Shown: positions 19,072 through 64,000 of the stretch, in pieces
Position numbering within the stretch: position 1 is the first letter of the stretch
Layout of the letters: each line of letters starts with the position of its first letter
Assembly (NCBI GenBank): GCA_035714365.1
Contig: DASTMB010000014.1
Coordinates: 55,720-119,719, forward strand
Direction: 5' to 3'
DNA length: 64,000 bases
Source: Mycobacteriales bacterium
GTDB lineage: Bacteria; Actinomycetota; Actinomycetes; BP-191
The notes under the pieces: model-generated
Seen by the model: only the letters and a program-made list of their open reading frames with translations
What the model was told of the DNA's origin: nothing
Databases searched by the model: none
Translations under genes and position numbers: made by a program

Positions 19072-19074
19072 GGA

Positions 19075-21381: not shown

Positions 21382-21391
21382 GCCGACCGCG

Positions 21392-46780: not shown

Positions 46781-47011
46781 ATGTCGTACGAGCGGATCAG
46801 CATCGACCACGCGAAGATGGGCGGGCTGCCCTGCATTCGCGATCTGCGGATTCCGGTGAGCACGGTGATCGGGCAGCTCGCCGCGGGGCGCACGCACGCC
46901 GACATCCTGGCCGACTTCCCCGATCTCGAAGAGGCCGACATCGTGGCGGCGCTGGAGTACGCGGCTGCGGCGGTGCAGGAACGTGAGCTGCCGCTGGCGG
47001 CGCACGGGTGA
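46781..47011 (+). CDS. DUF433 domain protein (antitoxin-like)
   Basis: AGGAGGAG RBS. 'ISIDHAKMGGLPCIRDLRIPVSTV' DUF433 signature. Confidence 0.7.
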   Translation: MSYERISIDHAKMGGLPCIRDLRIPVSTVIGQLAAGRTHADILADFPDLEEADIVAALEYAAAAVQERELPLAAHG

Positions 47012-47385
47012 GGTTGCTCCTCGACGCGAACCTGTCGCACCGAATCGCTGTCCTTTTGCGAGCGCGAGGGTTCGACGCGAGTCACGTGCGCGACCACGGG
47101 TTGCAGCACGCGGACGACGAGGCGATCTTCGACTTCGCCGCTGCTGATGGCTGTGTGCTGGTGTCGGAGGACACCGACTTCGGGGAGATCCTCGCTACCC
47201 GGGGTGCGAAGGTCCCGTCGCTGGTCCTGCTGCGATCCGCCGAACCCATCAGCCCCGACGACTGCGTCGACCTGCTCGCCGACAACCTTCCATTGGTCGC
47301 GACCGCTCTCGACTCCGGGTCGCTGGTCGTCATCGCTCGGGGCCGGATGCGGATCCGCGCATTGCCCTTCGGGCGAGGCGAGTAG
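47008..47385 (+). CDS. DUF5615-like PIN-fold protein (toxin partner of DUF433)
   Basis: GTGA overlap with the DUF433 gene. 'LLLDANL' N-terminal acidic motif. Confidence 0.65.
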   Translation: MRLLLDANLSHRIAVLLRARGFDASHVRDHGLQHADDEAIFDFAAADGCVLVSEDTDFGEILATRGAKVPSLVLLRSAEPISPDDCVDLLADNLPLVATALDSGSLVVIARGRMRIRALPFGRGE

Positions 47386-47401
47386 ACGGCGCTCCTGCAT
47401 C

Positions 47402-48592
47402 GTGGACCGACTTGTGATCGTTCTGGCCGTCCTGATGGTGATGGCTGCTGTCGTCGGGCTGTTACTGGCCCGGCGTGTCCGCCGTGCGCCCGTATCCGAG
47501 CCCGGTGAGCTTGCCGCTCTCGACGAGCCCTCGGTCGATCTCGACACGGTGATGGCGGATGCCGGCGCCACGTTGTACATCCCCATCGACGCTGGGCGGA
47601 CGTACCTGGCGGTCGCCCACCCCGACGCGCCGGTCGAGGGGTGTACGTCGCCCGTCCCCTCTCAGCTCGTGGCGGCTGCCGTGGCCGGGCAAGCCGGCCT
47701 GGAGGCGCTGGTCAGCGCCGGGCGACTGACCGGGCGCCTGGTCCTCGTCGACCCCGCCACGGCAAAGGCGATCAAGGCCGGCACGATGGTCACCGACAAA
47801 GCGGGCGACATGCTCGCCGTGATCAGAGGCAGCGGCGGTGGCTTCTCCGGACTGACCCGAATCAAGCCGCTCTCCGGTGGCCTGGTGAAGAGCGCAGCCG
47901 CTGGTCCCGCCATGTTGAGCGCGATCGCGATGCAACAACAGCTCGCTCGGGTCGAGAAGTCGATCAGCGAGGTACGGGACGCCGTCGATGCCGTCAAGGG
48001 GTACCTGGAAGCAGCCCAGCGGGCAGCCGTCGAAGGGCGTCGGGCCACCCTGGCAACGGTCTACCGGACAGCACAGGAGACTGGCCGGATGACTCAGTCC
48101 CTGTGGGACCAGATCCAGGATCTTGAGTCAACGCTCATCGCCGACGCCAAGCTCGCTGACCGCGCTCTCGCGCAGGCGGTCAGCGAGCTGGAGCAAGCCG
48201 CACCCGGCCTGGTGGGTTCGCGTCTCAAGTGGCTGGAGGATGCCTGCAGCCCCGTGGCCGCTGCGGTCGCCGGCGTGGCTGACGCCCGCCGGAGCCTGGT
48301 CCAGTTCTCGATGTTGCGACTTTGGTGGCTCGCGGTGGTCGACGACCCGACGCTGGCCAGCAGGCAGTCGCAACTCCGTGAGCTCCTCGCCGAACTTCCC
48401 GACCACGCCGCCGAGCAGGCCCGCGCCGAGAAGGCGCTCGCCGAGGTCGGAGAGCTCAAGACGCATCACCGCGTCCTCGCGCCCCGCAAGCACAAGCAGG
48501 TGGCGTCCCGGGTGGGGCATGCACAGCGCGAGATGCAGGACCTCCCATGGAAGCTCGCGGACGTCCGACGAATTGCCGCGCTGGAGCCGTAG
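47402..48592 (+). CDS. Membrane-anchored (single N-terminal TM) coiled-coil hypothetical protein
   Basis: TM 'LVIVLAVLMVMAAVVGLLLA'. No recognisable domain. Confidence 0.5.
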   Translation: MDRLVIVLAVLMVMAAVVGLLLARRVRRAPVSEPGELAALDEPSVDLDTVMADAGATLYIPIDAGRTYLAVAHPDAPVEGCTSPVPSQLVAAAVAGQAGLEALVSAGRLTGRLVLVDPATAKAIKAGTMVTDKAGDMLAVIRGSGGGFSGLTRIKPLSGGLVKSAAAGPAMLSAIAMQQQLARVEKSISEVRDAVDAVKGYLEAAQRAAVEGRRATLATVYRTAQETGRMTQSLWDQIQDLESTLIADAKLADRALAQAVSELEQAAPGLVGSRLKWLEDACSPVAAAVAGVADARRSLVQFSMLRLWWLAVVDDPTLASRQSQLRELLAELPDHAAEQARAEKALAEVGELKTHHRVLAPRKHKQVASRVGHAQREMQDLPWKLADVRRIAALEP

Positions 48593-48839
48593 CACCCGGC
48601 AGCCGACCCGCCTCTACCTCACTTCTACCTATACCTCGGCCCGAACGCTGGCTCACCTGGTCCAAGCCGTTCGTCGCAACGCCCGCCGGCTCGTCGTGAA
48701 TCGGCGAGCGCGTCGAGTGCGGCTTCGCAGTCGGCGCTTCACGACGAGCAGGCGAACCTCGCCCGGGCAGTTGAGCGGACGCTCGAGTCGGCGGATCGCC
48801 GCGTCCAGCGTGCCCGCAGCAACTGCCGAATCCTGACAC

Positions 48840-49112
48840 CTAGAACGGTGGTTCTCCGGAACCTTGCAACTCGGAGGAATCATCGCCGTACGAGGTGATA
48901 ATCAGGTCCGCCGTGCGCTCCCCGATCGTGATTGTGGAGGGGGAGTTGTCGAACGCCTTCCACATGATGTCGCCGTCACCGTCTGGGCGGACCCGACCCG
49001 ACCAGACCTTCATGCCGGAGGCTTGTTCCACCAGTTCGAAGAGCATCGCGTGTACGGGGCCGCTTGTGCCGTCCGCGGATCGCAGCACGGCTGGGCCCTT
49101 GTATTCGCGCAT
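48840..49112 (-). CDS. Small hypothetical protein (90 aa)
   Basis: GGGAGA RBS before the ATG (MREYKGP...). Confidence 0.4.
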   Translation of the reverse strand: MREYKGPAVLRSADGTSGPVHAMLFELVEQASGMKVWSGRVRPDGDGDIMWKAFDNSPSTITIGERTADLIITSYGDDSSELQGSGEPPF

Positions 49113-49249
49113 GACGTCTCCCGATGGCGGCAAACGAACTAGCGGTGCCCCGCAAGTGTCAGGTACGACAGCACCGAGACGGTGAAGCCACCCTGACGCT
49201 CGCGACACTAGCCCTGGCGGACCCGTCGCGGCAGAAGCGGTCGTCTTCA

Positions 49250-49564
49250 TCAGCTGGGCGTCGCGGGTGCTGTGTACTCGATGCCGAAGTGATCTGCGAT
49301 AAGCCGAGTGGTCTCACAGGCCCAACCTGAGCGATCGGCGATCGCGACGGCCTCTTCGTCGGCGCTGTCGCATTCACCGGTGCCGGAGCCGCAGTCCCGA
49401 TGGAGCTTCAAGAGGCGCCGGGCCAAGGGATCCTCGATGCTGTTCAACCGCCGCATCGACTCGAGCCAGTTCGCCACCGGCACCGGTTTGTTCTCTGGGA
49501 CCTCGTAGACCACGTCCATGTGCTCGGCTTCGCTCGCTGCTTCGTCGTACTCGAATCGCGCCAC
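49250..49564 (-). CDS. Small hypothetical protein (104 aa)
   Basis: ORF only. Confidence 0.4.
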   Translation of the reverse strand: MARFEYDEAASEAEHMDVVYEVPENKPVPVANWLESMRRLNSIEDPLARRLLKLHRDCGSGTGECDSADEEAVAIADRSGWACETTRLIADHFGIEYTAPATPS

Positions 49565-49581
49565 ATGACGACCCTAGAGAC

Positions 49582-50745
49582 TCAGGGAGTGCTCGGCGAT
49601 CGTCGGCGACAGAGCTCGGAGGCGGCAAGAGCGGATGACGGCGCGACGACAGTTGGCCGCGTTCGCGGGCGCCTCGACCGGCAGGGGCTCATGCGGCACT
49701 TCGCCGGCGGCGACATTAGGCCAGCGCCCCGACAAATCCGCGTGGGTGATCCGTACCAGCCGCGGCGTCCAGCCGGGCACGGTAGACGACCGGCTTGACG
49801 GCTGCGACGACCTCGATGGCGGTGTGCCAGCGCAGCAGCGGCTCCTCGGCAAGAGCATTGGTCACCACCGCCATGACCCAGTCCGGGTTCGTCACGGACT
49901 TGTCCAGTTTCGTTGGCCGTGACGTAGACGGTCGGTGCCGGTCCGCTGGTGGTCTTGACCTCGATGCATAGCCGGGCGTCAGTCAGGGTGGCGGTGATGT
50001 CCCACCCGCACTTCTCGCGGTCCACGAGATCGACCTTCCACGGCGGTGAGAAGTAGGCAGTGACCATGTCCATGCCGATCTTCTCTACGGCCTGTGGGTC
50101 GACGCTGTGCCCCTGCCTGGCGGTGAGGTCTCGTGCGCTGTCGCTGATGGCCTTGGCCGCCGGGTCGGTGGGCAGGTTGTCGAAGATCGACGGCCATTCC
50201 TGTAAGTGGCAGAAGGCGTGCCACAGGAACTCCTTGGCGTGCTCCAAGTCCACGAAGGACGTGCCCGGTAGCGCTTCGAGCGCCTCCCGGAGCAGGTCGT
50301 TGCTCCAGTAGGCCAGCCGCCCGATGCTCAGGCCGGTGCTGTCGGAGTTCGGCATGGGCAGTCCGAAGACCACCCGCCCGATGTCTTGCTTGCCCTTGCC
50401 GTTGGCGCTCTCGTACGGCAGCAGTGCGATGAAGCGCTGCGGCTGCATGACGCAGAGGACTTTTGTGAGCAGCACGACGCCGACGCCGTAGGTGTTGCCC
50501 ACCATGTCGGTTAGGCGGTCTTCCTCGTCGCCGGGGCCGCGCATCAGGTACTCGATGGTGCTGCGGACGCTCGCTGCCGTAGCCTCCGGCCCGTTCTCGT
50601 TCCAGCCCTTGTAGAACGTGCCGAGGTTGCCGGGCGCAGCCATCGTCGGTGACGTGATGAAGGCCCAGAGGTCGTCGGGGGTCGCGGCTGCCAAGGCTTC
50701 CGGGGTGCTGAAGATCGCCCGGTTCCGGGCTGCGTACTCGTGCAC
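49582..50745 (-). CDS. Hypothetical protein with a C-terminal DUF3883 / PD-(D/E)xK-like nuclease motif 'DLVDREKCGWDITATLTDARLCIEVKTT'. Possibly frameshifted at the 5' end.
   Basis: GTG at 50745 is one candidate start. The upstream ORF 50769-50987 in another frame suggests a disrupted N-terminus. Confidence 0.4.
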   Translation of the reverse strand: MHEYAARNRAIFSTPEALAAATPDDLWAFITSPTMAAPGNLGTFYKGWNENGPEATAASVRSTIEYLMRGPGDEEDRLTDMVGNTYGVGVVLLTKVLCVMQPQRFIALLPYESANGKGKQDIGRVVFGLPMPNSDSTGLSIGRLAYWSNDLLREALEALPGTSFVDLEHAKEFLWHAFCHLQEWPSIFDNLPTDPAAKAISDSARDLTARQGHSVDPQAVEKIGMDMVTAYFSPPWKVDLVDREKCGWDITATLTDARLCIEVKTTSGPAPTVYVTANETGQVRDEPGLGHGGGDQCSCRGAAAALAHRHRGRRSRQAGRLPCPAGRRGWYGSPTRICRGAGLMSPPAKCRMSPCRSRRPRTRPTVVAPSSALAASELCRRRSPSTP

Positions 50746-51173
50746 TTCGGGACTCGGCTCAGGTTGGATCAGCAGGTAGCGGGCCTTGAGGTCCGCAGGA
50801 GTGCGACGGTGTCGACCGGGATCTGGTCGGCCTTGGGGAAGGCCGCACGTGCCTCGGTCAGCGTCCGGACCCGTCTTCCGCCACGCTGCGCCGGGGGAGC
50901 GGGAGGCGGGGAGGCCAGATACGCGGCGACCGCCGCCTCGCAACTGGGGCAGCCCGGCACCGCACGGATGTGATCGCAGGTCATGCGCGAACTATGCCGC
51001 CCCATGGTGGCGCGAGTCCGCGGCCGATCTGAAACTGCCTCGCCCTTCACCGGCGACCCAGTCGGCACTAGCCGCTGTGAGCAGGTGCGCTGTGCGGGAG
51101 ACGAGGATGCCGAGCAATCCGAGCTTCTGAGCAGCAAGTGGCGTCCTGGGGTCTCACTGTCTTCAGCTGACGG

Positions 51174-51980
51174 CTACTCCCAGGGCGCGTCCTGAACGAT
51201 CTCCCAACCTCGGTCGCGCTCGTAGTGGAGCCCGGGGCCGGGGCAGTCTGGCCACACCCACAGGTCCGTCAGGTCGTCGGGCGGTTCGTAGGCGGGGAGG
51301 GTGTAGGACGCGGCTCCGGAGTCGTTGCTGGCGTCGAGGGCGATGGCGATGGCGAGCCCGGCTTCGGAGGCGCTATCGACCTGGAGGTAGAGGTGCCGGC
51401 TGTCCCCTCCGGCGCGGCGGAGCTTCTGGACGTGGTCGACGACGCTGGGCTCCTGAAACGCCGCGTCCAGCCAGGTGTCGACACCGCTGCCTTGTACGCC
51501 TCTGGCTCCCGTGCTGCCGCCGGTGAGGCTGACGGTGCCGGTTGGGCCCTCGGCGTCCCGGTACGCGACTGCCTCGATGCCGAGGGAGTGCATCAGGTCG
51601 GCCACCTCAAGGGGGCAGTTGCCGGGCGCGATGAGTCGGCCCGCTTGCTTGACGGCGTCGAGCACCGTCTCGAGCCCGGCAGCTTTCGGCACGTCGCGCG
51701 TGTCGACGTTGCGGTGGAGGTAGAGGGTCCACTCGCCAGGCATCGACACCGTAAACGTGCGCCTCTTGAGGATGGCCGCCCGCTGCACCTTTCGACGCTT
51801 GTCAGGCCGCGAGGTCACCTCGACGTGACCGGGCGCGCCGGGACCAATGAGTCTGTAGTCCGGCAGCCCGATCGTGCCAGGGACGTCGGCGGTTTCGAGT
51901 GGCCCCACGTACGGTTCGAGGCGGCGCCGGGCAAGCTTCTCCTCCGGCTCTTCCTCGCCGCTACCGCTCATGCAGTCCAT
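51174..51980 (-). CDS. Hypothetical protein
   Basis: ORF with a plausible GAGCGAGA RBS. Confidence 0.4.
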   Translation of the reverse strand: MDCMSGSGEEEPEEKLARRRLEPYVGPLETADVPGTIGLPDYRLIGPGAPGHVEVTSRPDKRRKVQRAAILKRRTFTVSMPGEWTLYLHRNVDTRDVPKAAGLETVLDAVKQAGRLIAPGNCPLEVADLMHSLGIEAVAYRDAEGPTGTVSLTGGSTGARGVQGSGVDTWLDAAFQEPSVVDHVQKLRRAGGDSRHLYLQVDSASEAGLAIAIALDASNDSGAASYTLPAYEPPDDLTDLWVWPDCPGPGLHYERDRGWEIVQDAPWE

Positions 51981-52254
51981 TCTCGCTCGGAGTGCAAACT
52001 GATTGGCTGGCCGACCGCCGCAGTCAGGATGATCTAGCGGTGGTGGTGTTCCGCCACTGCTTCTCGTGCAGCCCACGAGCAATCAGGCGCAGTCGGACCG
52101 CTTCGCGGCATGAGCGGTCATTTCCGCAGTCCCATATCCGCGTCTTACTCGGTCTGAAGCATCGCGGGTCGAGGGATCCGGTAGCCGCCACATCGGGGCG
52201 GCGATTAGGTATACGGTCGCCGCAAGGGCGGGATGCGGGAGAGGAGGAGTACGG

Positions 52255-53376
52255 ATGAGTTTGGATTCGTACCTCGCGGCGTTGCGGGACTCGACAAGTA
52301 TGCCCGCGCCGATCGTAGAGAGGGCGGTGAGCGAGCGAAGCTATGCGATTACAACGCTAGACACGGTGGACGAGCTTGGGCAGATCGAGCGCACGGTCGA
52401 GGAGATGGAGCGGTTCGCCGAGGAACAGTCGGCGGGCACGCTGGCCGGCCGGTCAGTACTCACCCTCGGCGGGCTGGTTAACGTGCGACAGGGTGCCCGG
52501 CTACTGGTCGCGGCGGACGCGGTCGAGACGACCGGCGGGCTGTACGCGTTGAGAGCCGGCTTTAGCGAGCAGTCGCTCGCCGATGCCATCCTGAGCGACC
52601 CGGATATCGAGGAGATGATCACCGCGATCCGGAAAGCGGCTGCTTACGAGCCTACCGCTGCGGGGTCGGTGCCGGCCGCGCCGGTTGATCTGAGCGCACT
52701 GGAGAAGGATCTGCAGGCGAATGTCGATGCGATCTTGCTTGCGGGTGACTCGGCGGTGAAGGACCTGGCTGGTGTGGTCGGGTGGGGCGCGGTCGCCGGG
52801 TCGGTGGGCGGAGCGCTGTCCTCGGCGGTACAGCGTTCGGCGGCCCTGCAGGCAGCGAAGGAGGTCGTCGGACGGATCAAGCGGCTTGCGCTGCGCATGG
52901 TCGAGGCCGGCTTCCGGGCGTTGCAGAAGGCGATTGGCGACGGGCCGCTCGGCCAGTTCATCGACAAGGCCAAGGCGCAGTTGTCCGAGTGGCTCGATCA
53001 TGGCGGCATCGGAGATCTGCTCGGCCGGCTGCTCAACGCGGATACCGTCGCGCCGGCATGCCTCGACGCGGTTCGCGCGGCTGGCGCGACTGACACGCAG
53101 CAGGCGGCTGCGCGGAACGCCGGGAAGCATGTTGCCGAGCACGCCCAGCAGTTGGCCCGTGTCAGTGACAAGGTCACCGACGTGGTGAGCTGGTTCGGCG
53201 GCGGCTTGTGGTCGGGCCCGATCGGCGCGTACCTGGCGGCTGGCTTCGTCGTCGCCATCGCCGCCGCGGCCTGGCAGGTTCAGGACCACCTGGACACGAC
53301 GGAGCCGTTCGGATTGCCGGATGTGACCGAGGGGATGATCAGCTCGGTTCGTGCGGCGGTCACCGGAACCGCCTGA
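52255..53376 (+). CDS. Hypothetical protein with a C-terminal hydrophobic segment
   Basis: AGGAGGAG RBS 6 nt upstream of the ATG. Confidence 0.55.
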   Translation: MSLDSYLAALRDSTSMPAPIVERAVSERSYAITTLDTVDELGQIERTVEEMERFAEEQSAGTLAGRSVLTLGGLVNVRQGARLLVAADAVETTGGLYALRAGFSEQSLADAILSDPDIEEMITAIRKAAAYEPTAAGSVPAAPVDLSALEKDLQANVDAILLAGDSAVKDLAGVVGWGAVAGSVGGALSSAVQRSAALQAAKEVVGRIKRLALRMVEAGFRALQKAIGDGPLGQFIDKAKAQLSEWLDHGGIGDLLGRLLNADTVAPACLDAVRAAGATDTQQAAARNAGKHVAEHAQQLARVSDKVTDVVSWFGGGLWSGPIGAYLAAGFVVAIAAAAWQVQDHLDTTEPFGLPDVTEGMISSVRAAVTGTA

Positions 53377-53565
53377 CACCGCGAGCCCGAAGACCCGCGT
53401 CGGGCGGGGCAGGACTACAGGGGTCCTGCCCCACGGCGCCCCAGGGGTGGCGGGGCTGACGCTCTACATGCCGACAGACGCCGACCGGATAAAGGTCAGC
53501 GCGCGCGGGTAGCGGCATGAGCGGACGTTCACGGTAGGGCCACCCGGTGCAGAACAGGTGCGCTC

Positions 53566-55872
53566 TCAGCCGCTGCGAGCAAGGCGTCTGCGCTGCCTGC
53601 GGCAGTTGCTGCAGCCGGTGCCATTCCGCGTCCTGTTCTTCACGCTGGTCAACCACTCGAAGCCGCAGGCGCTGCATCGCCAGCGGCACCGGTCGTGGCT
53701 ACCGGCCTTCAGCATGTGCGGGAGCCGGTTGATGTTGGTCTCATTTGCAACGAACTCCGCTGCAAGCTCTGGGTGTAAGTCCGCGAGCGACCTGCCGGGA
53801 CGGGGACGGGCCTTGCCGGCCGCGGTCCGCGCTCGGGCACAGGCTGGGCATCCAGCACCGGCAGTGCGGCTGGCAACCGTGGTGCTCCACTCATGGCCAC
53901 ACGTGATGCACGACCAACGGCACGTCTTGTTCGACGATGAGAGAAGCGTGGCCGCCGTGTGCGCGGGCTCCGCGGTGCACTTGATCAACTCGGTGGCGAC
54001 AAGGGGATGGAGGTCGGCGAGGCTTGCGCCAGCCGGAGCGATAGTGCGCGAAAGACGGACCCGTTCACGGCCACACGAGGCGCAGCCTCTGCCTCGAAGT
54101 CGTGTCGCGGGGGACGCCGTGAATTGCTGTCCGCACGTTCTGCACCGCCAAGAGCAGGCCAGATTGCTCGACGGTCGGAGCGTCGCCGCCGTTCGAGAAG
54201 GGTCTGCCAGGCACGCGGTGAACTCGTCGGCGATCTCGGGATGTGTGTCGGCAAGGGACTCGCCCGGACCCGGAATGGAGCGTTGCCTGCTGGCAGAAGC
54301 AACGCGTGCGCGGCTGCAGGGCGGACAGCCCGAGCCTGTGCCAGCTCGGGATGCGACCGAGCTGATCCACGTGTGGCTGCATCTTGCGCACTGCCACTCG
54401 CAGCTGTCTCGTGCGTTCGGGCTCAGCCAGTCGAGCGTGACCCCTTCACGGGTCAGGTTCCGGCGGAACTCGCCGGCGAGCTGCGGCGCGATGTCGAGCG
54501 CGCTCGACCGGGGCGGTGCATTGACGTCAGCCTGCCAACTGGCGAAGGCGGTGGCCAGCGCGGCGGAACGCTCACCGAGTGTCAGCTTCTTCCAGTTGAG
54601 TCCCCTGCTCCTCACAGTCGGTCTGAGCGCATCTGCCCAGACGTAGGGGTCCTCGCAGCCGTCATCGACGAGAACGACCGAGCAGTCCAGCGCCGGCAGC
54701 GATCGCGGCCGGATGCGCAGGTATGTCTCACCGCGCATGGCGGCCGCTTTGCGCTGGTCTCGCTGCGGATGGCGGTGCCAATGCTTCGGGTCGAGGTCGA
54801 TTAGGAGTCCGATGTTGCTGATCGCCAGATCCACGCGCCACCGGCGACCGTCAGCTTCGACACCGACGTCGACCAGAACCGCGGTGCCGGTTGCTGCGGC
54901 GACTAGTTCTGCCACCTCATGTTCGAAGAGGGATCTGCCGTTGCGAGTGCATCGGGCGCAACCAGCACCGGCGACTCGCGAGGCGACCGTCGTGCTCCAT
55001 ATATGTCCCTTGCGGCAACGCCACTGGCAGATGTCGTTCGAGCCGGCTGCTAACAACTCTGGCCCGCGTCCAGGCACGGTCTGGTTCACGACGAACTCGG
55101 CGGCGACGCTCGGGGATACCTCCGAGAGGGCACGACCGGGCCGCGGATTCCGACGCGCAGTTCCGCTTCTCGCGTTGGCGCAGCGTGGGCAGCCACTGTT
55201 CTTGGTTACGCGGTTGGTCACGGTCGCCGTCCACCTGTACCCGCAGCTGCCGCATCGCCAGGCGCAGCGGTCCACGGAAGATGGGCGGAGTCCGTCGAGT
55301 CCGCTGCCGGGGTTCGTGAGGTTCTCGAGGAACTCGTGGGTGATCGCCGGCGCCATACCCGCCGCGGTCGCGGCATCATGCCGTGGACCCCGACGGCTGG
55401 CTGCTCGTGCCTGGTTGGCGCATGCCGGACAGCCGCGGCCGTGTGCACGGTTGGCGACGACCGATTCCCACTCTGTCGAGCACACACCGCACCGCCAGAG
55501 GCAGCGCTGCTTGCTTTTGACGCGCAACTCGGCTGGACCCATGTCGGGACGGTCAAGGTTGCGAACAAACTCGGCCGCAAGCTTGGGGTTTAGGTCTTTC
55601 AGTGCCTTGCCCGCGGGCGCTTGGGCGCGAGAACGGGCTCGGCGGGCCCAGGCGCACTCGGGGCAACCGGTGCCTGCCTGGGCCCGCGCGGCCACGGTTG
55701 TAGCCCACTGGTATCTACACAATCGGCAGCGCCACCGCACCTTGATGTTGCTGCCTAGGCCAAGGTTTGCGATGTTCATGTCCCGGCCCGGGGTAGTTAC
55801 CGCTTCAGCGAGGAGATCGGTCCGTCCGGCTCCGATCGTCTGCTGCGGCGCTGGTCCCGGCACGTGCACCAT
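53566..55872 (-). CDS. Protein with seven treble-clef zinc-ribbon repeats (pattern L..EF..N.....LxxxSxxxCxWRCxxCGHxWxTTVxxRxxxGxGCPxCA) flanking a central Vsr/DUF559-like endonuclease-fold segment
   Basis: Repeats read directly. The central 'RVDLAISNIGLLIDLDPKHWH...RGETYLRIR' resembles very-short-patch-repair-like nucleases. Confidence 0.55.
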   Translation of the reverse strand: MVHVPGPAPQQTIGAGRTDLLAEAVTTPGRDMNIANLGLGSNIKVRWRCRLCRYQWATTVAARAQAGTGCPECAWARRARSRAQAPAGKALKDLNPKLAAEFVRNLDRPDMGPAELRVKSKQRCLWRCGVCSTEWESVVANRAHGRGCPACANQARAASRRGPRHDAATAAGMAPAITHEFLENLTNPGSGLDGLRPSSVDRCAWRCGSCGYRWTATVTNRVTKNSGCPRCANARSGTARRNPRPGRALSEVSPSVAAEFVVNQTVPGRGPELLAAGSNDICQWRCRKGHIWSTTVASRVAGAGCARCTRNGRSLFEHEVAELVAAATGTAVLVDVGVEADGRRWRVDLAISNIGLLIDLDPKHWHRHPQRDQRKAAAMRGETYLRIRPRSLPALDCSVVLVDDGCEDPYVWADALRPTVRSRGLNWKKLTLGERSAALATAFASWQADVNAPPRSSALDIAPQLAGEFRRNLTREGVTLDWLSPNARDSCEWQCARCSHTWISSVASRAGTGSGCPPCSRARVASASRQRSIPGPGESLADTHPEIADEFTACLADPSRTAATLRPSSNLACSWRCRTCGQQFTASPATRLRGRGCASCGRERVRLSRTIAPAGASLADLHPLVATELIKCTAEPAHTAATLLSSSNKTCRWSCITCGHEWSTTVASRTAGAGCPACARARTAAGKARPRPGRSLADLHPELAAEFVANETNINRLPHMLKAGSHDRCRWRCSACGFEWLTSVKNRTRNGTGCSNCRRQRRRLARSG

Positions 55873-56044
55873 TCTCGTAGATCACGCGATAGCACGCTGG
55901 CAAGCGGCTGACTCCTCCGCGGCATGAGCGGACGTGCGGCTACGCCCCGTCGAGCATTCCGGGGCCCCGACCCGGGCGGTTTTGTCGGTATAGCAGCGCG
56001 AAGATGCTGCGCTCCGTACCGTCAGTTGACGGAGGAGACCGACG

Positions 56045-59000
56045 ATGAGCTCAACCGAAGCGCCTGTCGACCTCGGTCCGGCGCGCGCTGCCGACGCCGC
56101 GCGTGCCATCTTCCACGACCCGTCCGCGACCGGCCTGCACGAGCCCGTCGGACAGGACGAGTGCGCGGCCGCCGTCGCCGCGCTCGCGAGCTGCTTCTCC
56201 GGTGCCGGCGGGACGGTCAGCAACATCGTCGCGAACGCCCGGGCCGCCGCGCAGGTTCTGTCCGGCGACAGGCTCCAGGGACTGTCAGAGATCGTGCAGA
56301 ACGCCGACGACGCCGGCGCGTCCCAAGTCCGGATCTTCCACGCCGACGACGCGCTCCTGGCCGTCCACGACGGACAGCCGTTGACCCTTCGCAACGTTCA
56401 CGCGCTGGCCGCGCCGTGGCTCACCACGAAGCGCGACGACGCCGGCGCGACCGGCCGGTTCGGGATAGGCCTGCTGACCTTGCACGCGCTCGCGGACGCT
56501 TTCGAACTCCACAGCGCGGACTACCACTTGCGCCTGGGAGATCCGACACTCGAGACGATCCCCGCGTTCCTCGAGGCGGCCCTGGCCGGGCCCGACGACA
56601 CCGTCGTGCGGGTCCCGCTCAACCCGGGCGCGCTCGGCCCGGACGAGCTCATGGCCTGGTGCGAGCACTGGGACGACAGCAGCCTTCTGTTCCTGCGCAA
56701 CATCCGCAACATCACGTTCGTCGCGGCTGGCGGCCGCCGCGAGCTCGCGCTCCGCCCCGAACCGATGCCGCCCGTCACCTGGAACCTGTCCGGCGCCGAC
56801 GTGCCCGTCTCACGCGCCCGCGTCACCGCCGCCGACGGGCGGCGCTGGCTGGTCTACCAAGCAGACCTCGCCAGTCCCGGCGGTCTGCAGCGGGCCCACA
56901 AACAGACCGACCCGACGACGCCGGTCGGCGTCGCCCTGCCCGCCGCCGACCGCGGCACCGGCGGGCAGCTTTTCGCCGGTCTGCCCGTCGTCCCGATCCG
57001 CGCAAGGCTTTCCGCGAACGCCCAGTTCGACCCGATCGCGAGCCGACAGAACCTCGCAGACAGCGCCTGGAACTCCGCGCTCGCCGAGCGAGTCGCAGCG
57101 CTGTGGGCGAACGCCGTCCTCGACCTGTTCGCGGTCGCGCCCGCATCAGCGTGGGCACTCTTGCCAGCGCCCGCCGAGCCGGATCCCGCGAAGACTCACA
57201 GCGCCCGCCCGGGAATCGTTGACCAGATCGAGAGCCTCCTCGACGACGCCACGGCGCGCGAGATCGGCACCCGGCTAGTTCTGCCCGTCGACGGACGGCT
57301 CGTCCACGTGAACGACCTCGCGGTCGAAGCCGCGGCCCTCACCGGCATCGTCGGCGACGGCGAGATCGCGGCCCTCGCTGGTCTGGCCGACACGCTGCCC
57401 CGTACCGCCCGCGACGCGGACGGCCGCTGGCGCGACGTGCTCGCCGCCTGGCGCGGCGCCGGCCACGGACTGCCGCCGGAAGTTACCGTCGCGGACGCGC
57501 TGCCGCTCGCCGAGGACGATGGACGCGACCCACAGGCAACGCTTGCCCTGGTCGCCGCCGGCGTCGGCGCCGCGCTCTACCAAGCCCTCGCGCGCCTGCG
57601 GTGCGTGCTCCTCCGCGACTCAAGCCGGACGACGCCTCCCGACCCGGACGAGCTCCGCGTGCTCACAGGCGGCGCCGGCGGGCTCGCCACGTCGCTCGGC
57701 ATCGCCGACGAGCTCCACCCGTCGCTGCTCGCAGACACCGACGATGCAGCTGCCGTACGCGCGTGGCTCGAACACCGCCACAAGCTTGTCGACTCGGACG
57801 GTGACGCCGACGTCCTCCGACTCCTCGCAGACGCCGGCAACCGCGGCCTAACGCTCGACCAGCCGCTCGCCGACGGCCAGGCCGTCGCGCTACGCAACGG
57901 CCTCGAGCACGCCGGCCAGGCCGACTGGCAACGCCTCGGAGCCGGCATCGGCAAGGCAATCCGGCTGCACGCCGTCACCTACGGCCCCAGGGGCAAGCTC
58001 GAGAACACCACCGCCCGGCCCGCAGACGCCTACCAGCCGAAGACCATCGACCGCGAACCCGACAGCTTTGCCGTCGCGGCGGACACCACACCGGGGCTGT
58101 TATGGATCGCGCCGCGGTACTCCGCCGTCCTGCGCTCGCCCCTGGGCCGTGCAGGCCTTGGCGCGCAACGTTTCCTGCGCCTTCTCGGAGCGGAGACATC
58201 GCCGCGGCTAGAGCCTCACCCCCGGCTGCTCTCCCGATACTCCGACCCGCGGCGCGGCCTGCACATCGACATCGCCGGCACCACTTCCGAACGCGCGCAG
58301 GCCCTGCGCGACCTGCAGGCGAGCTACTCCCTCGACGACCACCACAGCCCCGACCTGCAGGCCGTCCTCGACCACATCGCCAGGGACCGCAAGGCGACCC
58401 GCCGCAGGCAGCGGGCCGCGGCCGTCCTCAGTGTCCTCGGGCGATCGTGGACCTCGCTCGCCGACCACGCGCAGGTCCCCGCAGCGCACGACTACAACGG
58501 CTGGCGCCTGCAAGGGCCCATCCGCTCATGGTGGCTCTGGGCAGCGGGCAGCGTCGCATGGCTCGACAACGCCGCGTCGGTGCCGTCCGCGCCGAAGGCC
58601 CTGCGGCTGCGGACCCCGGCGACCGTCGCCGTCCACGGCGACGACGCCGGGTCGTACCTGCACCCTTCGTTTCGGGCCGTCCGCGCCGACGTACTCGCGC
58701 ACCTGGGTGTCGCCGGCGAGCCAAGTACCCGAGAGCTCGTCGCCAGGCTTGAGCACCTCCGCGCGTCGCCGGCCGCCCTCGACATCGCCGCGGAAACCGC
58801 GATCGTCTACCAGGCCCTCGCCGACCGTGCCCGGGAAAGGCGGCGCTCGTCGGGGCACCTGCCCCCGAACAAGCTCCGCGAGCTGTTCGGCGCCGGCACG
58901 GGCCTCATCCTCACCGCGAAAGGCTGGCTTCCGCCCGGAGAGGTTTTGCGCGGTCCGCCGGTCTTTGGGCCGTATCGGGCATTCGTCCCGCAGACGGCAG

Positions 59001-60580
59001 GCACCGAGCCGCTCTGGTCGGCCCTGCAGGTAAGGCGGCCCGACCTCGATGACTGCCTCGGCGTCCTGCGCGACATCGCGAAGACGCGCCTTGCGGACAC
59101 GCCGACGCGCACCGTCGTTCTGGAAATCCTCCGGCTCATGGCCCAACTCGTCGCGGCCGCAGACGTCGACGACCGGATCGCGAAACGCCTCCAGCGCGCG
59201 CCCTTGCTCACCAGCCAAGGCTGGACCGCCGTCCGGCCCGTTTACTGCGTCGACGACCTCCCGCTAGCAACCGGCATCGCCGACAGCCTGCCCGTCTGGG
59301 CGCCCGGCGGCGAACTCGAGCAGTTCAAGGCGCTCGTCCGGCCGCTGCGGCTCACGTCTGTCTCCGTCGCGGACGCGCCCCTTGTTAGCGTCGCCGACAG
59401 CTACCTCGACGATGACACGACCGAACTGCTCCACGACGCCGTTGCGCTCCTGCGCGAGGACCTAGCCCGCAACGACCCGGCGAGCGAACAGGGCCTGACC
59501 TGTGGCTGGGACGTCCTCGAGACGCTCGACGTCCGCATCGCCGCCGAGCTGCGGGTCTCCCTCGACACGGTGCCCGGTCGGCCGACGACGGTGCCCGTCG
59601 CCGCGCGGCTCGACGTAGCCGCGGCGACGCTCTACCTCACCGACCCGGACGACGTTGGCCGCGTCGACAGCGGCGGCCGTGCCGTCGCCAGCGCGTTCTC
59701 GGCGGACCACAGAGCGATGTCGCAGGCGTGGCTCGCCGCGATCGCCTCTGCCCGGGAAGGCCGCGCGGCGGTACGGCTCCGGCTCGCCGCCGAGACTGCG
59801 GCAGACGAAGCCGCCAAGTCCCAGGCCGCGATCAGCGCGAAACTCGACGAGCTCAGAGGACAGGTTAAGGACCGGAAAGCCAAAGCAGCGACCGGGACAG
59901 GGGCCAAGGGCCGGGCGACAACCCTCGCGAAGGACCTGCCGCCGCCCCCGCCCGGTCGCAAGCCTGCGCTGTCCCCCACGCCGCGCGTTCTCGTCGACCC
60001 GTCGACGCTCGTCGTCGTCGATCCCCAAGGCGTCATCGTTTCCGGGACCGGCGCTCCGCCCGCCCGACCCGGCGCGACGGAAAAGCCTCGCGGTCCGCTG
60101 CCCGCGCCGCGGCCCGGCGGCGCCGTGCCGAGCGCGCGAAAGTCGCGACGCGACTACACCGACCTGGAGAAGGAGACGGTCGGGCTCGAGTTGGTCCGTC
60201 GTGTCCTGGGCGGCAGCGCGAAAGAGATCGTCGATCTGCGTGCGCAGCACGGCGTCGGCGCGGACGCCGTCGACGAGCTCCGTCAGTTCTACGAGCTCAA
60301 GGTGGCCGCGGGCACCGAGCCTGACGAGATCGTGCTGGAGGACGCACAAATCCGACGCGCCTTGTCGGCGAAGGACTTCTTCCTTGTCATCGTCTCCGGC
60401 GTCGAAGGCGCAGCGGCAACCCCGCGCGTCCGCGTCGTCGTCAACCCCGTGGGGCAGCTCCGAATGTCCAAACGCAGCCAGGTCCGGTTCGGCGGAATCC
60501 GGCAGTCGCTCAGCCTGGTTTACGACCTGCGTCCCGCCGCGGACGCCGGGCCGGACGACGCCGCGCCGACCGCCGGCTGA
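56045..60580 (+). CDS. 1511-aa protein: N-terminal GHKL/sacsin-MORC-like ATPase (Bergerat motif 'SEIVQNADDAGAS'), long middle region, C-terminal DUF3883-like nuclease domain
   Basis: Motifs read in the translation. Low-GC context. Confidence 0.75.
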   Translation: MSSTEAPVDLGPARAADAARAIFHDPSATGLHEPVGQDECAAAVAALASCFSGAGGTVSNIVANARAAAQVLSGDRLQGLSEIVQNADDAGASQVRIFHADDALLAVHDGQPLTLRNVHALAAPWLTTKRDDAGATGRFGIGLLTLHALADAFELHSADYHLRLGDPTLETIPAFLEAALAGPDDTVVRVPLNPGALGPDELMAWCEHWDDSSLLFLRNIRNITFVAAGGRRELALRPEPMPPVTWNLSGADVPVSRARVTAADGRRWLVYQADLASPGGLQRAHKQTDPTTPVGVALPAADRGTGGQLFAGLPVVPIRARLSANAQFDPIASRQNLADSAWNSALAERVAALWANAVLDLFAVAPASAWALLPAPAEPDPAKTHSARPGIVDQIESLLDDATAREIGTRLVLPVDGRLVHVNDLAVEAAALTGIVGDGEIAALAGLADTLPRTARDADGRWRDVLAAWRGAGHGLPPEVTVADALPLAEDDGRDPQATLALVAAGVGAALYQALARLRCVLLRDSSRTTPPDPDELRVLTGGAGGLATSLGIADELHPSLLADTDDAAAVRAWLEHRHKLVDSDGDADVLRLLADAGNRGLTLDQPLADGQAVALRNGLEHAGQADWQRLGAGIGKAIRLHAVTYGPRGKLENTTARPADAYQPKTIDREPDSFAVAADTTPGLLWIAPRYSAVLRSPLGRAGLGAQRFLRLLGAETSPRLEPHPRLLSRYSDPRRGLHIDIAGTTSERAQALRDLQASYSLDDHHSPDLQAVLDHIARDRKATRRRQRAAAVLSVLGRSWTSLADHAQVPAAHDYNGWRLQGPIRSWWLWAAGSVAWLDNAASVPSAPKALRLRTPATVAVHGDDAGSYLHPSFRAVRADVLAHLGVAGEPSTRELVARLEHLRASPAALDIAAETAIVYQALADRARERRRSSGHLPPNKLRELFGAGTGLILTAKGWLPPGEVLRGPPVFGPYRAFVPQTAGTEPLWSALQVRRPDLDDCLGVLRDIAKTRLADTPTRTVVLEILRLMAQLVAAADVDDRIAKRLQRAPLLTSQGWTAVRPVYCVDDLPLATGIADSLPVWAPGGELEQFKALVRPLRLTSVSVADAPLVSVADSYLDDDTTELLHDAVALLREDLARNDPASEQGLTCGWDVLETLDVRIAAELRVSLDTVPGRPTTVPVAARLDVAAATLYLTDPDDVGRVDSGGRAVASAFSADHRAMSQAWLAAIASAREGRAAVRLRLAAETAADEAAKSQAAISAKLDELRGQVKDRKAKAATGTGAKGRATTLAKDLPPPPPGRKPALSPTPRVLVDPSTLVVVDPQGVIVSGTGAPPARPGATEKPRGPLPAPRPGGAVPSARKSRRDYTDLEKETVGLELVRRVLGGSAKEIVDLRAQHGVGADAVDELRQFYELKVAAGTEPDEIVLEDAQIRRALSAKDFFLVIVSGVEGAAATPRVRVVVNPVGQLRMSKRSQVRFGGIRQSLSLVYDLRPAADAGPDDAAPTAG

Positions 60581-60742
60581 GCGACATCCGCCCGCGACAG
60601 CTCAGAGCGGCTCGACGTGCGCGTGCGGATACTGAGGCGGGGTCTCGCCAGAGCGCGGCCGCGCCCACCAGGCCCACGACGAACGCCGGCCGCAGTCCGG
60701 CGGAGCGCCGCTACCGTCGAAGGGTTCGCGCTGGCTTGGGGC

Positions 60743-61087
60743 CTACTCCGTGAAGCTGAGTTGACCTGCAGCAGCGCGCGACAGTGTCAGCGTCGCGCCG
60801 TGCAGGGTGAGGTCGAGCGACAGGCCACTCTCGAGCACAGCCTGCACTCCAGCGTGATCACGGGCCGCGACCACGCCGACAACGTCGGCCAGCTCGTCGA
60901 GAACGACGAGCTGGTCCTTATCGTCCGACTCGACGATCGACACCGCCACAGGGTCAGCAGACACATCACCGCCGACCTGCACGCTGGCCTTGGCGCTGCC
61001 GGTCGCCATCAGCTCCCCGAGCTTGTGCCGGTCGTTCCCCTGGACGTACGCGAGAAGGTCCAGCACGTCGGTAGGCGACGCGTTCAA
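60743..61087 (-). CDS. Small hypothetical protein (114 aa) whose TTG start overlaps the helicase stop (TTGA). Alternatively it is the true C-terminus of the helicase after a -1 frameshift.
   Basis: The frame after the helicase stop stays open and protein-like for 114 codons. Confidence 0.35.
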   Translation of the reverse strand: MNASPTDVLDLLAYVQGNDRHKLGELMATGSAKASVQVGGDVSADPVAVSIVESDDKDQLVVLDELADVVGVVAARDHAGVQAVLESGLSLDLTLHGATLTLSRAAAGQLSFTE

Positions 61088-64000
61088 CCTCTCGCGCCAC
61101 CCACGGATGTGCAGTCCGGCGAGGAAGTCACGCAGACCCGCGGCGTCCAGTCCCGCCTCCCGTGCGATCCGCCCAGGTCCCGCGCCAGTGCGCGGCTCTT
61201 GACGTCCCGCACTAGCAGCTCGATCGCGAGCGGGGTGTCCACGCCGTATCGCAGATGCGCTGCCGTGCTCGGGTACAGCTGCATCGGGCTTAGGCGCGAG
61301 AGCAGGATGTCGTTCGCATGGCTGACGACGAGCCCCACGGTCCACGACAAGTAGTGCTGAACGCCCTCGCTGATGCCGTCGACCGTCTGCTCGAGCCGGA
61401 ACGCGGGGTCCGGCACGGCCCCCAGGTGCGCATCGGCCAGGTCCGTGAAGTCCCGGCCGGCGACCCAGTCGCGGACCAGAACCGCAGCGGGCACATTCAA
61501 CGAGGCCCCCCTGGGGGACACCTTGAAGCGCCAGTGCTTTTGCGCCTCGGGCACGGCCAGAAGCCTCGAGTACACGTCCAGCTCGGTCAGCACGTCCAGC
61601 GTCGCATCCAAGGACAGCTCCCCGATGCTGCCGAGCTGCTGCACCCGGTCAGCGACGTCCTTCGCGATCGTCTCCAAGACTGCCGCCGTGCCGAGGCTCG
61701 TCCCAGCCTGCGCCCACCGACGTCGTGACGCTGGGGCCGTCCGCGCGTACCGGTCCGCGACGACCTCCGCCAGGGCGAGCCACCGTGCCTTGAGGTCCTC
61801 ACTGAGCTGCGTGAACGCGAACAGGCGCGTAACGACGTCACGCCAGTTGCCTGTTGCGGCCAGGTTCGGCACGAGCTCGAGGGCGTGCATGACGAACCAG
61901 ACGTAGTTGACGAAGCCACCGGTCTGGCCGTCGTGCGGGAGCTGCAAGATCGCATCCTGAGTCTGCGCGACGAGGGCCTCTGCCTCGGCGAGTGCAGCCA
62001 TGGCGGCCTCGTCGGCTAGCGTCGAGCGGACCTCCAGGTCACTCGCAGCGGGGGTCAGCCGGTCGAAGTCGCTGTCCTGCAGAGTCTTGGGTAGCGACAG
62101 GACGATCCAGCCCTCGGACTCCTTGCCGGCGCGGCCCGCGCGACCGACAGCGTTGAGCAGCTGAGCGGGCGTCATACGCTGACCCGGGTCTTGCCCGTCG
62201 TACGACGTCGTGGCGATCACGACCGTCCGCACCGGCAGATTGACACCGTCGGTCAGGGTGCTAGTGGCGACGACGGCTCGGAGCCTCTCGTCACGGATGG
62301 CGTCCTCGACGGCTTCCTGCACCTCGACGGGCAGGCCCGCGTGGTGGTAGCCGATGCCCTTGCGGACGCAGGCCACCAGCGGGTGGTCGGACCCGAGCCG
62401 GGCGGCGAGCGCGTCGGCGAGCCCCTGCGCCCGGGGCTCGTCGTCGAGCATCTCCGCCATGACCTTGGCAGCGTCACGCGCCTGTGCACGTTGCGTGACG
62501 ACCATCAGCAAGCTCCCTGCCCGCAGCAGCCATGTCGCGGTCCGAGCGGTCGTGACGTACGCCGGCGTCGTGTTGCCCTTGCCGGTCACGCGCTCGTTCC
62601 CTCTCAAGACGAGCTGACCGATCGGGGAGTCGTCGGTGGTGACGAGCTCCTTCTGCGTAGCGCTCGTCGGGCGCACCGAGAGCTTCGCGCGAAGGTCGTA
62701 CCGCGTCTTGGGAACTGCGCTGCCGCGCACGGGCACCGTTGTTTGACTCGGCAGAATCTTCTCGGTCGTCATCAGCACGTGCAGCCGCCTGGGGGCCCGC
62801 CACTCATCGGTGAATAGCACGTTGCCCTGGCCGCGGCTCGCCCATGTCGCGAGCGAGGCAGCGTTCCCGATCACGCCAGAGAGCAGCATGAGCCGGGCGC
62901 CGCTCGCCTCGAGAACGGACAGCAGACCGTCCATCAGCAGGCCCCGTCCGCCTGACTGGGCGATGAGGTGCGCCTCGTCGATGATGAACAGGCTGAAGCG
63001 GTCAAGCACCTCCTGCGGCGACTGACGTAGTGCATTCATCAGCCGCTCGGGTGTCATTACCTCCACCTGCGGAAGCGATGCGCCGTCACGGTCGCCGTTG
63101 CTCTCCTCACTGAGGAGGTCCTGGTTGCCGAAGCCGTCCGGGAGATCGGCGCCAAGACGCCGGTCGAGGTAGCGCAGGCGAGACCGGAGGGCTTGGCGCA
63201 TCTCCCTGCCGAGACTGCGCAGCGGCGTGACGTAGCAGACGTCGCCGGTGTCCTGCGCGGTGTGTGCGCAGATGATCAGCTGGGCTAGCAGCGTCTTACC
63301 CGCGCTGGTCGGCACGGACACGAGCAGACGGGACGTGTCCGGGTGGAGCGGCCCGTTCGCCGGGGCGGCGATGAGCTTGCGCTGCGGTGGCCAGAGCGTC
63401 AGGACCGGGTTCCGGTCCAGGGTGAAAGCCTGCTTGACCGCGGCGGGGAGACTCGGGGGCAGGACGGCCCAGACGCTGTTCTCGCCGAGCCCGTCGGCGA
63501 GAGCCAGCAGGTGCGCCGCGACCCAGCGGGTGTCGAGGTCGCTGAGGCCAACCACCTCACGTACGACGAGCTCGAGGTGACCACGCGCGGCGTCCAGGAC
63601 CTCGACGTCGCCTTCGCGCAGGTACGTGACGAGGTCGGCGACGCCGCGCAGCAACCGCTGCGTCGGCCCGAACATGGTTCCGTCGAGGCTCCCGAGCTGT
63701 GTGCCGCGGGTGAGCGCACGAGCGGCGGAGCCCCAGGCCCGCAGCCGCTGGCTGAGGATGGCGACCTCCATGCCGAGGAACAAGATCCCGGCGTGTAGGG
63801 CGACGTCGCCACCGTTCGTAAAGGCCGGGATCGGGGTGTCGTCGTCACGAAGGTGCCGACGGATCGCGGCGGCGTTCGGGCTCTGGTCTGCGCGGTGGTA
63901 CCCGACCTGGGCCGCGAACGCGGTGTTCAACCGGGCGGTCCCGACCTCAGCGGGGTCGGACAGGAGTAGGTCGAGGACGTGCGAGCTGACCGCGAAGGCG
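61084..64000 (-). CDS. Large DEAH-box superfamily-2 helicase (Lhr/Ski2-like), 5' partial (the frame continues beyond the window end)
   Basis: Motif I 'PTSAGKTLLAQL'. Motif II 'FIIDEAHLI'. Motif VI 'NAVGRAGRAG'. No stop upstream of 63930 up to position 64000. Confidence 0.8.
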   Translation of the reverse strand, partial: AFAVSSHVLDLLLSDPAEVGTARLNTAFAAQVGYHRADQSPNAAAIRRHLRDDDTPIPAFTNGGDVALHAGILFLGMEVAILSQRLRAWGSAARALTRGTQLGSLDGTMFGPTQRLLRGVADLVTYLREGDVEVLDAARGHLELVVREVVGLSDLDTRWVAAHLLALADGLGENSVWAVLPPSLPAAVKQAFTLDRNPVLTLWPPQRKLIAAPANGPLHPDTSRLLVSVPTSAGKTLLAQLIICAHTAQDTGDVCYVTPLRSLGREMRQALRSRLRYLDRRLGADLPDGFGNQDLLSEESNGDRDGASLPQVEVMTPERLMNALRQSPQEVLDRFSLFIIDEAHLIAQSGGRGLLMDGLLSVLEASGARLMLLSGVIGNAASLATWASRGQGNVLFTDEWRAPRRLHVLMTTEKILPSQTTVPVRGSAVPKTRYDLRAKLSVRPTSATQKELVTTDDSPIGQLVLRGNERVTGKGNTTPAYVTTARTATWLLRAGSLLMVVTQRAQARDAAKVMAEMLDDEPRAQGLADALAARLGSDHPLVACVRKGIGYHHAGLPVEVQEAVEDAIRDERLRAVVATSTLTDGVNLPVRTVVIATTSYDGQDPGQRMTPAQLLNAVGRAGRAGKESEGWIVLSLPKTLQDSDFDRLTPAASDLEVRSTLADEAAMAALAEAEALVAQTQDAILQLPHDGQTGGFVNYVWFVMHALELVPNLAATGNWRDVVTRLFAFTQLSEDLKARWLALAEVVADRYARTAPASRRRWAQAGTSLGTAAVLETIAKDVADRVQQLGSIGELSLDATLDVLTELDVYSRLLAVPEAQKHWRFKVSPRGASLNVPAAVLVRDWVAGRDFTDLADAHLGAVPDPAFRLEQTVDGISEGVQHYLSWTVGLVVSHANDILLSRLSPMQLYPSTAAHLRYGVDTPLAIELLVRDVKSRALARDLGGSHGRRDWTPRVCVTSSPDCTSVGGARG

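Follow-up and report, generated by a model that had tools for sequence, protein, structure and literature searches.

Tiamat is a defence system encoded by a single gene, whose product carries a PD-(D/E)xK domain; it is enriched in Actinobacteria and its mechanism is described as unknown (PMC10482375, PMC12926258, bioRxiv 10.1101/2024.10.26.620412). It has been reported almost always on chromosomes (PMC10482375). The system is credited to Millman et al. 2022 by way of a citation in PMC12926258; the 2022 preprint version of that study does not mention Tiamat. In the Hachiman system HamAB of E. coli the helicase detects DNA damage, upon which the HamA DNase is released or activated, and the C-terminus of the helicase HamB forms an OB-like barrel that contacts DNA (PMC12278908). 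RosmerTA is a defence system composed of a toxin and an HTH-Zn-peptidase antitoxin (bioRxiv 10.1101/2022.05.11.491447). Relatives of these three systems were found in, or just past, the right-hand part of a 64,000-nucleotide stretch of DNA from a Mycobacteriales bacterium (assembly GCA_035714365.1, contig DASTMB010000014.1, positions 55,720 to 119,719), referred to below as the window, in the region that follows the RNase P RNA gene rnpB.

The original prediction for this region, made from the sequence, was a defence island containing an uncharacterised multi-gene antiphage system. The island part was borne out by a full-length Tiamat gene, a Hachiman-type helicase operon and, just past the window end, RosmerTA together with an IS481 element. 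We consider the region after rnpB to be a horizontally acquired defence island of independent modules lying side by side, and not one multi-gene machine, with a probability of about 0.85. Four modules would build it: a DUF433/DUF5615 (PIN-like) pair; tmtA, the single-gene Tiamat system; a convergent operon of Hachiman type on the minus strand, coding for sequence-divergent HamA-like and HamB-like proteins; and, beyond the window, RosmerTA (RmrT/RmrA) with an IS481 transposase. Orphan genes would separate the first module from the second, among them a frameshifted NOV_C nuclease gene and the gene for a zinc-finger protein of 768 amino acids (aa). Tiamat and Hachiman have already been named, and the giant protein and the helicase of the region are two separate known systems.

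The Tiamat gene and its neighbourhood

The plus-strand gene tmtA (56045..60580) encodes a protein of 1511 aa which matched the PADLOC TmtA model PDLC03968 with 1464.9 bits, residues 12-1498 being aligned with positions 10-1483 of a profile of 1486. Its N-terminus contains a sacsin-type GHKL ATP-binding domain recognised above the cutoffs by NCBIfam NF047352 (75.4 bits, cutoff 50) and by Pfam SACS (35.2 bits, cutoff 32.8). A long middle region follows, and the C-terminus carries a nuclease-like domain with the motif D1407...E1417-x-K1419. These three residues were invariant in 20 homologues, down to 41% identity, as were E82, N86 and D89 of the Bergerat fold and the G137-R-F-G-x-G142 motif. The GHKL ATPase that had been claimed for this protein was thus confirmed. 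Approximately 290 full-length homologues were found, mainly in Actinomycetota and Chloroflexota.

Judged by these sequence matches the 1511-aa protein is Tiamat, a member of the TmtA family. It shares with Tiamat the length of about 1500 aa, the combination of a GHKL/sacsin-type ATPase with a D...E-x-K C-terminus and the occurrence as a stand-alone chromosomal gene in an actinobacterium. It differs in the lack of a Pfam NOV_C/DUF3883 match at the C-terminus, where the original prediction had named DUF3883; this domain was detected neither in the window protein nor in four of its homologues. The UniRef names of some TmtA homologues mention DUF3883/NO VEIN, and an hhalign comparison of the TmtA C-terminus with the NOV_C protein encoded elsewhere in the window placed the catalytic residues opposite each other in a weak alignment (E 1.1e-3, probability 20%). 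Sacsin models and structures were matched by the ATP-binding domain at the N-terminus, and the only solved relatives returned by the profile search were sacsin ATPase domains (5v44-5v47). The likeness to sacsin, NO VEIN and prokaryotic MORC-type GHKL ATPases with DUF3883 is one of domain architecture only, the specific family being TmtA. It may be proposed that the GHKL/sacsin-type ATPase serves as a sensor or clamp powered by ATP and would license the C-terminal D...E-x-K nuclease-like domain, leading to the cutting of invading DNA.

When TmtA was looked up by exact sequence, three public contigs were retrieved whose sequence is 100% identical to that of the window. All three run beyond the window end, and L001 and L002 overlap the left part of the window as well. 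A protein of the source metagenome-assembled genome (MAG), labelled Mycobacteriales bacterium, is deposited as HEU0130113.1 (locus tag VFQ85_03885).

The helicase gene lies on the opposite strand, 162 bp from tmtA. This adjacency was the basis for the proposal that the GHKL/MORC-like ATPase-nuclease giant, a small coupled open reading frame (ORF) and the superfamily 2 (SF2) helicase form one new multi-gene antiphage system; it speaks for that proposal, as does the general tendency of cooperating defence genes to be neighbours. The two genes are convergent, which precludes their co-transcription, and scans for terminators, promoters and inverted repeats between them found nothing beyond the shuffled expectation. 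The conservation of the 56045-64000 gene pair as a unit was examined in 77 genome loci with TmtA homologues and flanks of up to 10 kb per side (tblastn, E <= 1e-5). These loci came from an alignment-based scan, the scan of genome contigs with the single TmtA protein having returned nothing. Homologues of the helicase, of its upstream partner or of the small ORF were present in none of the 77. The other window neighbours were almost as rare, the zinc-finger gene and the DUF433 pair occurring at one locus each. When the flanking ORFs within 4 kb of tmtA were clustered at 79 TmtA loci, no family was present in more than 11, and the larger clusters were either a loose group of low identity or reflected the synteny of closely related Streptomyces. 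The family present at 11 of the 79 loci was initially taken for an IS110 transposase; this was abandoned, the cluster being loose, of low identity and at variable distances.

A TmtA of 86% identity, on contig L086, resides in a wholly different island, where an integrase, IS110 and MNT/HepT genes are found. Conservation at the DNA level comprises only tmtA, approximately 120 nt upstream and approximately 50 nt downstream (L001 9880-14584 versus L086 9886-14587, 86.5%). Since no neighbour is conserved across the loci and only the gene with its short flanks is shared in this comparison, TmtA appears to be a self-contained cassette. The L086 island also contains a helicase pair, encoding proteins of 311 and 1070 aa (17280-21424), co-oriented with tmtA and 2.7 kb downstream of it. 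This could be counted in favour of a joint giant and helicase system, but the L086 helicase is only 30% identical to that of the window, and between its gene and tmtA lie an HTH gene and the MNT/HepT pair. The 311-aa partner has no Pfam match, and the pair is probably another unrecognised Hachiman-like variant. To this are added the match of TmtA to a single-gene Tiamat model from end to end, and two results described in the next section: the helicase has a HamA-like partner of its own, and the small ORF is the C-terminus of the helicase itself. A single new system uniting the three genes is therefore very improbable. Profile searches, which place TmtA in Tiamat and the helicase with HamB and PDC-M23B in PADLOC, refute it by the criterion set out with the original prediction, namely the assignment of these proteins to described systems.

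The helicase operon and its HamA-like partner

The helicase gene (61084..64000, minus strand) is cut by the window end. Residues 82-1052 of the truncated frame, i.e. 971 aa, lie inside the window and the N-terminus lies beyond position 64000, the full contig encoding 1052 aa; this agrees with the DEAH helicase of at least 970 aa noted originally. The protein is of the Ski2/Hel308-like SF2 type, matches Pfam DEAD and Helicase_C and contains PTSAGKT and IIDEAH. In PADLOC it matched PDC-M23B (PDLC04531) with 229 bits over positions 212-1009 of 1060; over 25 HamB models also matched, the top one scoring 185.5 bits with near full-length coverage. In the PDB the helicase matched best the HamB chain 8vx9_B from the E. 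coli Hachiman system (E 1.2e-25).

Three intact homologues of the helicase, from Citricoccus, Nocardioides and Rhodococcus, are 1165-1172 aa long versus 1052 aa here. Their residues 1-1024 align with the window sequence at 71-73% identity in one frame and residues 1024-1164 at 52-58% in another. The junction reads GACCTGGGC^GGATCGCA and is one base short of the expected D-L-G-R-I-A. Since the alignment with homologues switches frame at this point and the junction lacks one base, the small ORF that had been thought to be coupled to the two large genes proved to be the C-terminal end of hamB, which a 1-nt deletion near 61172 (at approximately 61171-61174) has shifted into another frame. The tail of about 140 aa is encoded at 60743..61174 on the minus strand; the public gene calls give it as a separate ORF of 107/114 aa (60743-61087), and a plus-strand ORF at 60617-61354 is its shadow. 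The detached part may correspond to the OB-like barrel of E. coli HamB. Unless it is an assembly error, the deletion may have crippled the Hachiman-type system.

Upstream of hamB, and overlapping it by 16 nt, a gene for a protein of 306 aa was found beyond the window end (window-equivalent 64227-65147, minus strand). The same 16-nt overlap is present at the Citricoccus, Nocardioides and Rhodococcus loci. A PDB profile search with the 306-aa protein gave no match; the UniProt name of one homologue of 64% identity mentions a HamA C-terminal domain. The family is sizeable, with 269 clusters at 50% identity in a search of a representative library, and its invariant residues are G162, D164, W181-E182-x-K184 and Q203. 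A first AlphaFold model, built from 22 close homologues, reached a mean confidence (pLDDT) of 61.4 and its Foldseek matches were meaningless; it was replaced by a second model, built from 107 diverse sequences, with a pLDDT of 94.1 and a pTM of 0.91. Foldseek returned three matches for the latter at E <= 1e-3, all of them HamA chains (8vx9_A at 6.9e-6, 8vxy_A and 8zue_A). The predicted fold is that of HamA, with a D-E-x-K active site.

On the predicted structure and the catalytic motif the 306-aa protein is thus considered a HamA-like nuclease, and on the same model the helicase and its partner constitute an operon of Hachiman type, with a HamA that has diverged beyond the reach of the current sequence models. 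As in the Hachiman system of E. coli ECOR31 (HamAB, 8vx9/8vxy) and in AbpAB (8zue), a small gene for a D-E-x-K nuclease overlaps and precedes the gene for a Ski2-like DEAH helicase, and the helicase matches the HamB profiles and 8vx9_B. The differences are the low identity of the 306-aa protein to the solved HamA proteins (approximately 12-15%) and the split of hamB by the frameshift, with the last 140 or so residues detached. With the candidate system PDC-M23 the locus shares the helicase, for which PDC-M23B is the best PADLOC match, but PDC-M23A is matched neither by any gene of L001 nor within the partner family; a literature search found no mention of PDC-M23. Because the 306-aa partner is not recognised by the DUF1837/HamA or PADLOC models, tools based on hidden Markov models (HMM) would report an orphan HamB/PDC-M23B at this locus.

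If the operon works like HamAB of E. coli, the helicase would survey DNA and sense damaged or free-ended DNA during infection; it would then release or activate the HamA DNase, and the degradation of DNA would abort the infection.

Homologous pairs also occur in other defence islands. In Citricoccus (L081 5819-12436) and Rhodococcus (L084 3414-14884) the genes for the HamA-like and HamB proteins lie directly beside CBASS genes (SMODS and AGS_C, with NUDIX or SLATT effectors), and the Rhodococcus pair additionally adjoins Thoeris genes (ThsA_Macro, ThsB_TIR). Such adjoining of CBASS and Thoeris is a further likeness to Hachiman.

Genes between rnpB and tmtA

The 172 bp upstream of tmtA separate it from a divergent minus-strand gene (53566..55872) encoding the 768-aa protein. 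Pfam DUF4379 was matched with 293.9 bits in eight stretches, i.e. eight treble-clef zinc fingers arranged as four plus four around a conserved central domain (residues 310-460, approximately). The zinc-ribbon protein claimed for this position therefore exists, with eight fingers and not seven. The 58 homologues, conserved over their full length, typically have about 755-780 aa, most of them falling within 725-840 aa, and come from Actinobacteria where the source organism is named. The residues E317, D348, D359-L-D361-P, W365-H366, R371-D372, K375, R386 and R388 are invariant in the central domain, for which neither Pfam nor the PDB profile search gave a match at E <= 10. The motif pattern (D348, D359-x-D361, H366, R371-D372, K375) would fit a nuclease fold of the Vsr/DUF559 type, such as the Vsr-like fold named in the original prediction, and the protein is a candidate stand-alone nuclease. 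The public gene calls place two plus-strand ORFs over this segment (L001 7688-9883), which is the wrong strand, and as a result the protein is absent from the protein collection, where the best match is 69% identical.

The divergent arrangement suggests a functional pair in which the 768-aa protein would serve, for example, as a DNA-binding or nuclease accessory to Tiamat. The same order was found in Dactylosporangium maewongense (L008 3738-11169), where the zinc-finger homologue is likewise divergent and upstream of the TmtA homologue, even though the proteins there are only 35% and 46% identical, respectively, to those of the window. This is the sole such case among the 77 TmtA loci, and the 86% TmtA relative has no zinc-finger gene. 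In Myceligenerans and Kribbella the zinc-finger homologues occur as single genes, with no TmtA, in variable regions, where their neighbours are RosmerTA-like Peptidase_M78/HTH pairs or an integrase. A functional link between the two genes is therefore highly improbable.

At the other end of the interval, the first genes after rnpB are a DUF433 gene (46739..47011, plus strand; Pfam PF04255, 77.8 bits; start at 46781 in the public gene calls) and a DUF5615 gene (47008..47385, plus strand; PF18480, 89.4 bits), which overlap by 4 nt. The DUF5615 product is PIN-like (Mut7-C-like), with 34 bits for PIN_10 and 22.9 bits for Mut7-C. The pair had been predicted and is present as such. By its family matches it looks like a toxin-antitoxin pair, the DUF433 protein being the antitoxin-like half and the PIN-like protein the toxin-like half. 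Gene pairs containing DUF433 recur near defence genes: an Acidimicrobiales MAG has a DUF433/DUF5615 pair at a distance of about 3.7 kb from TmtA (L007 5746-6344), and in Nocardioides a DUF433 gene with an ORF of 168 aa is found 2.7 kb downstream of HamAB (L083 15152-16050).

The next gene (47414..48592, plus strand) encodes the 392-aa protein that had been described as a membrane coiled-coil protein; it has one N-terminal hydrophobic helix and a helical/coiled-coil body, and its sole family match, to the coiled-coil family ALIX_LYPXL_bnd, is weak and below threshold. It is followed on the minus strand by a small DUF4873-like ORF (48840..49250; Pfam PF16170, 25.8 bits, barely above the cutoff of 25 bits) and by an ORF of 104 aa taken from the public gene calls (49250..49564). 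Further orphans are a minus-strand gene for 268 aa (51174..51980, with the ORF extending up to 52082), supported by the GC content at third codon positions (GC3) and by a public gene call, and a plus-strand gene for 373 aa (52255..53376) with a C-terminal hydrophobic segment. The orphans of 392, 104, 268 and 373 aa gave no significant match in Pfam, PADLOC or NCBIfam, and PDB sequence searches with those of 392, 268 and 373 aa found nothing.

The remaining gene of the interval encodes a NOV_C (DUF3883) protein of the PD-(D/E)xK type on the minus strand (49716..50745). It is interrupted by a 1-nt insertion near 49908 (GAA-A-CTG), an additional A following ...ACGGCCAACGAA, after which the domain resumes in another frame. 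As read, the gene scored 27.7 bits with Pfam NOV_C and the match ended at position 65 of the 91 in the profile; with the tail repaired the score rose to 37.5 bits and the match extended to position 86. The DUF3883-like protein claimed for 49582-50745 was accordingly found, but its gene is frameshifted and the end at 49582 results from out-of-frame read-through.

The NOV_C insertion and the hamB deletion together raise the possibility of a decaying island, in which true pseudogenes have arisen from the Hachiman-type operon and from the NOV_C gene, leaving Tiamat and, outside the window, RosmerTA as the only functional systems. Such decay would refine the interpretation as an island of independent modules rather than exclude it. 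The two single-base frameshifts are independent, fall less than 12 kb apart into conserved domains, one of a nuclease and one of a helicase, and are the same in all four assemblies. An IS element is near, and the loss of the hamB tail is likely to matter, as the C-terminal barrel of E. coli HamB contacts DNA (PMC12278908). The assemblies, however, show 100% identity to each other and could go back to a single read set, so that a shared assembly or consensus error is possible. The detached tail also keeps an open frame, with 52-58% identity and a GC3 of 0.81, which suggests either a very recent change or an error, and the two polypeptides of a split helicase might still come together. The chance that the two loci are true pseudogenes is judged to be a little below even.

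Composition, edges and origin of the island

The left edge of the island is marked by rnpB (46085..46478, plus strand), a bacterial RNase P RNA of class A which matched Rfam RF00010 over the full model (1-367) with 276.8 bits. The GC content in 2-kb windows is 0.73-0.77 over 39-46 kb, drops immediately after rnpB to 0.665-0.70 and is back at 0.72-0.73 across 56-60 kb. GC3 is 0.71-0.87 in the genes after rnpB versus 0.87-0.99 in the long upstream ORFs, the minimum of 0.71 being that of the DUF4873-like ORF. As the genome has approximately 74% GC, the "low GC" of the island is only relative. The claim that all genes after rnpB are atypical in composition holds insofar as the GC3 of every one of them is below the upstream median; tmtA, with a GC content of 0.724, is barely so.

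Past the window end the third defence module was identified on L001. RmrT (260 aa, 19297-20079; PADLOC, 116.6 bits) is followed by RmrA (389 aa, 20076-21245; 421.1 bits, Pfam HTH_3 and Peptidase_M78), and the overlapping genes have the order of RosmerTA, a toxin and then an HTH-Zn-peptidase antitoxin. Being outside the window, RosmerTA is part of the island and not of the proposed giant and helicase system. A UPF0489 protein of 243 aa and a transposase of the IS481 family come after it (L001 21344-23281, window-equivalent 67388-69325).

Alternatively, the lineage might simply carry core or housekeeping genes downstream of rnpB, with an incidental shift in composition. The GC content of tmtA is near the host level, Tiamat has been reported on the chromosome in nearly all cases (PMC10482375), and the empty-site comparison gave no informative locus, all of which would fit. 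Against it stand three consecutive matches to defence models in the company of a toxin-antitoxin-like pair, an IS element and pseudogenes, the unrelated surroundings in which the homologues are found, with integrases, IS110, CBASS and Thoeris genes as neighbours, and the uniformly lowered GC3. Core genes are thus a scarcely credible explanation, and an acquired island is preferred.

Several observations weigh against the interpretation as an acquired island of known modules. In the empty-site test 80 metagenome loci with homologues of the PNPOx gene upstream of rnpB were compared; their identity did not exceed 70% and none contained rnpB. Because this comparison failed, the term "acquired island" rests on composition, gene content and the differing contexts of the homologues. 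The public contigs end at the IS481 element and consequently the right-hand boundary of the island was not reached. PADLOC divides TmtA into nine sub-models (PDLC03964-03972), of which the 1511-aa protein is strong in one and weak or partial (<=84 bits) in the other eight, so it may be distant from the experimentally tested Tiamat protein. The best PADLOC match of the helicase is the candidate system PDC-M23B and not HamB. Its 306-aa partner has no match to DUF1837 (PF08878)/HamA, to PDC-M23A or to any other Pfam or PADLOC model, and the same applies to 22 close homologues and 9-10 distant representatives. Finally, both frameshifts are known from assemblies identical to each other, which probably represent one population or data set.

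A second stretch of lowered GC was noticed in the window at 34174-37835 (GC 0.664, GC3 0.77). It starts directly after tRNA-Val (34174-34249) and carries a single ORF of 1013 aa (34794-37835, plus strand), with TPR repeats in the C-terminal third of the product. This stretch could be a further integrated element, or the gene could be STAND-like.

The main value of the analysis is a correction: what appeared to be a new system is Tiamat next to an operon of Hachiman type, the two lying back to back. It is possible, but unlikely, that at least one of the orphan genes at 47.4-55.9 kb is an undescribed defence gene, the 768-aa protein being the best candidate, and that, separately, the HamA-like family would extend Hachiman by a subtype missed by the tools. 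The interest that remains lies in this HamA-like family, which current tools overlook, and in the unexplained zinc-finger/nuclease-like protein, hidden from the protein databases by the mis-called strand. Since a sizeable family of HamA-like proteins from actinobacteria is recognisable only by predicted structure, HMM-based annotation would under-count Hachiman in that phylum. The tmtA cassette, with the approximately 120 nt upstream that are conserved in two different islands, would offer a compact, self-contained unit for experiments on Tiamat in an actinobacterial host.

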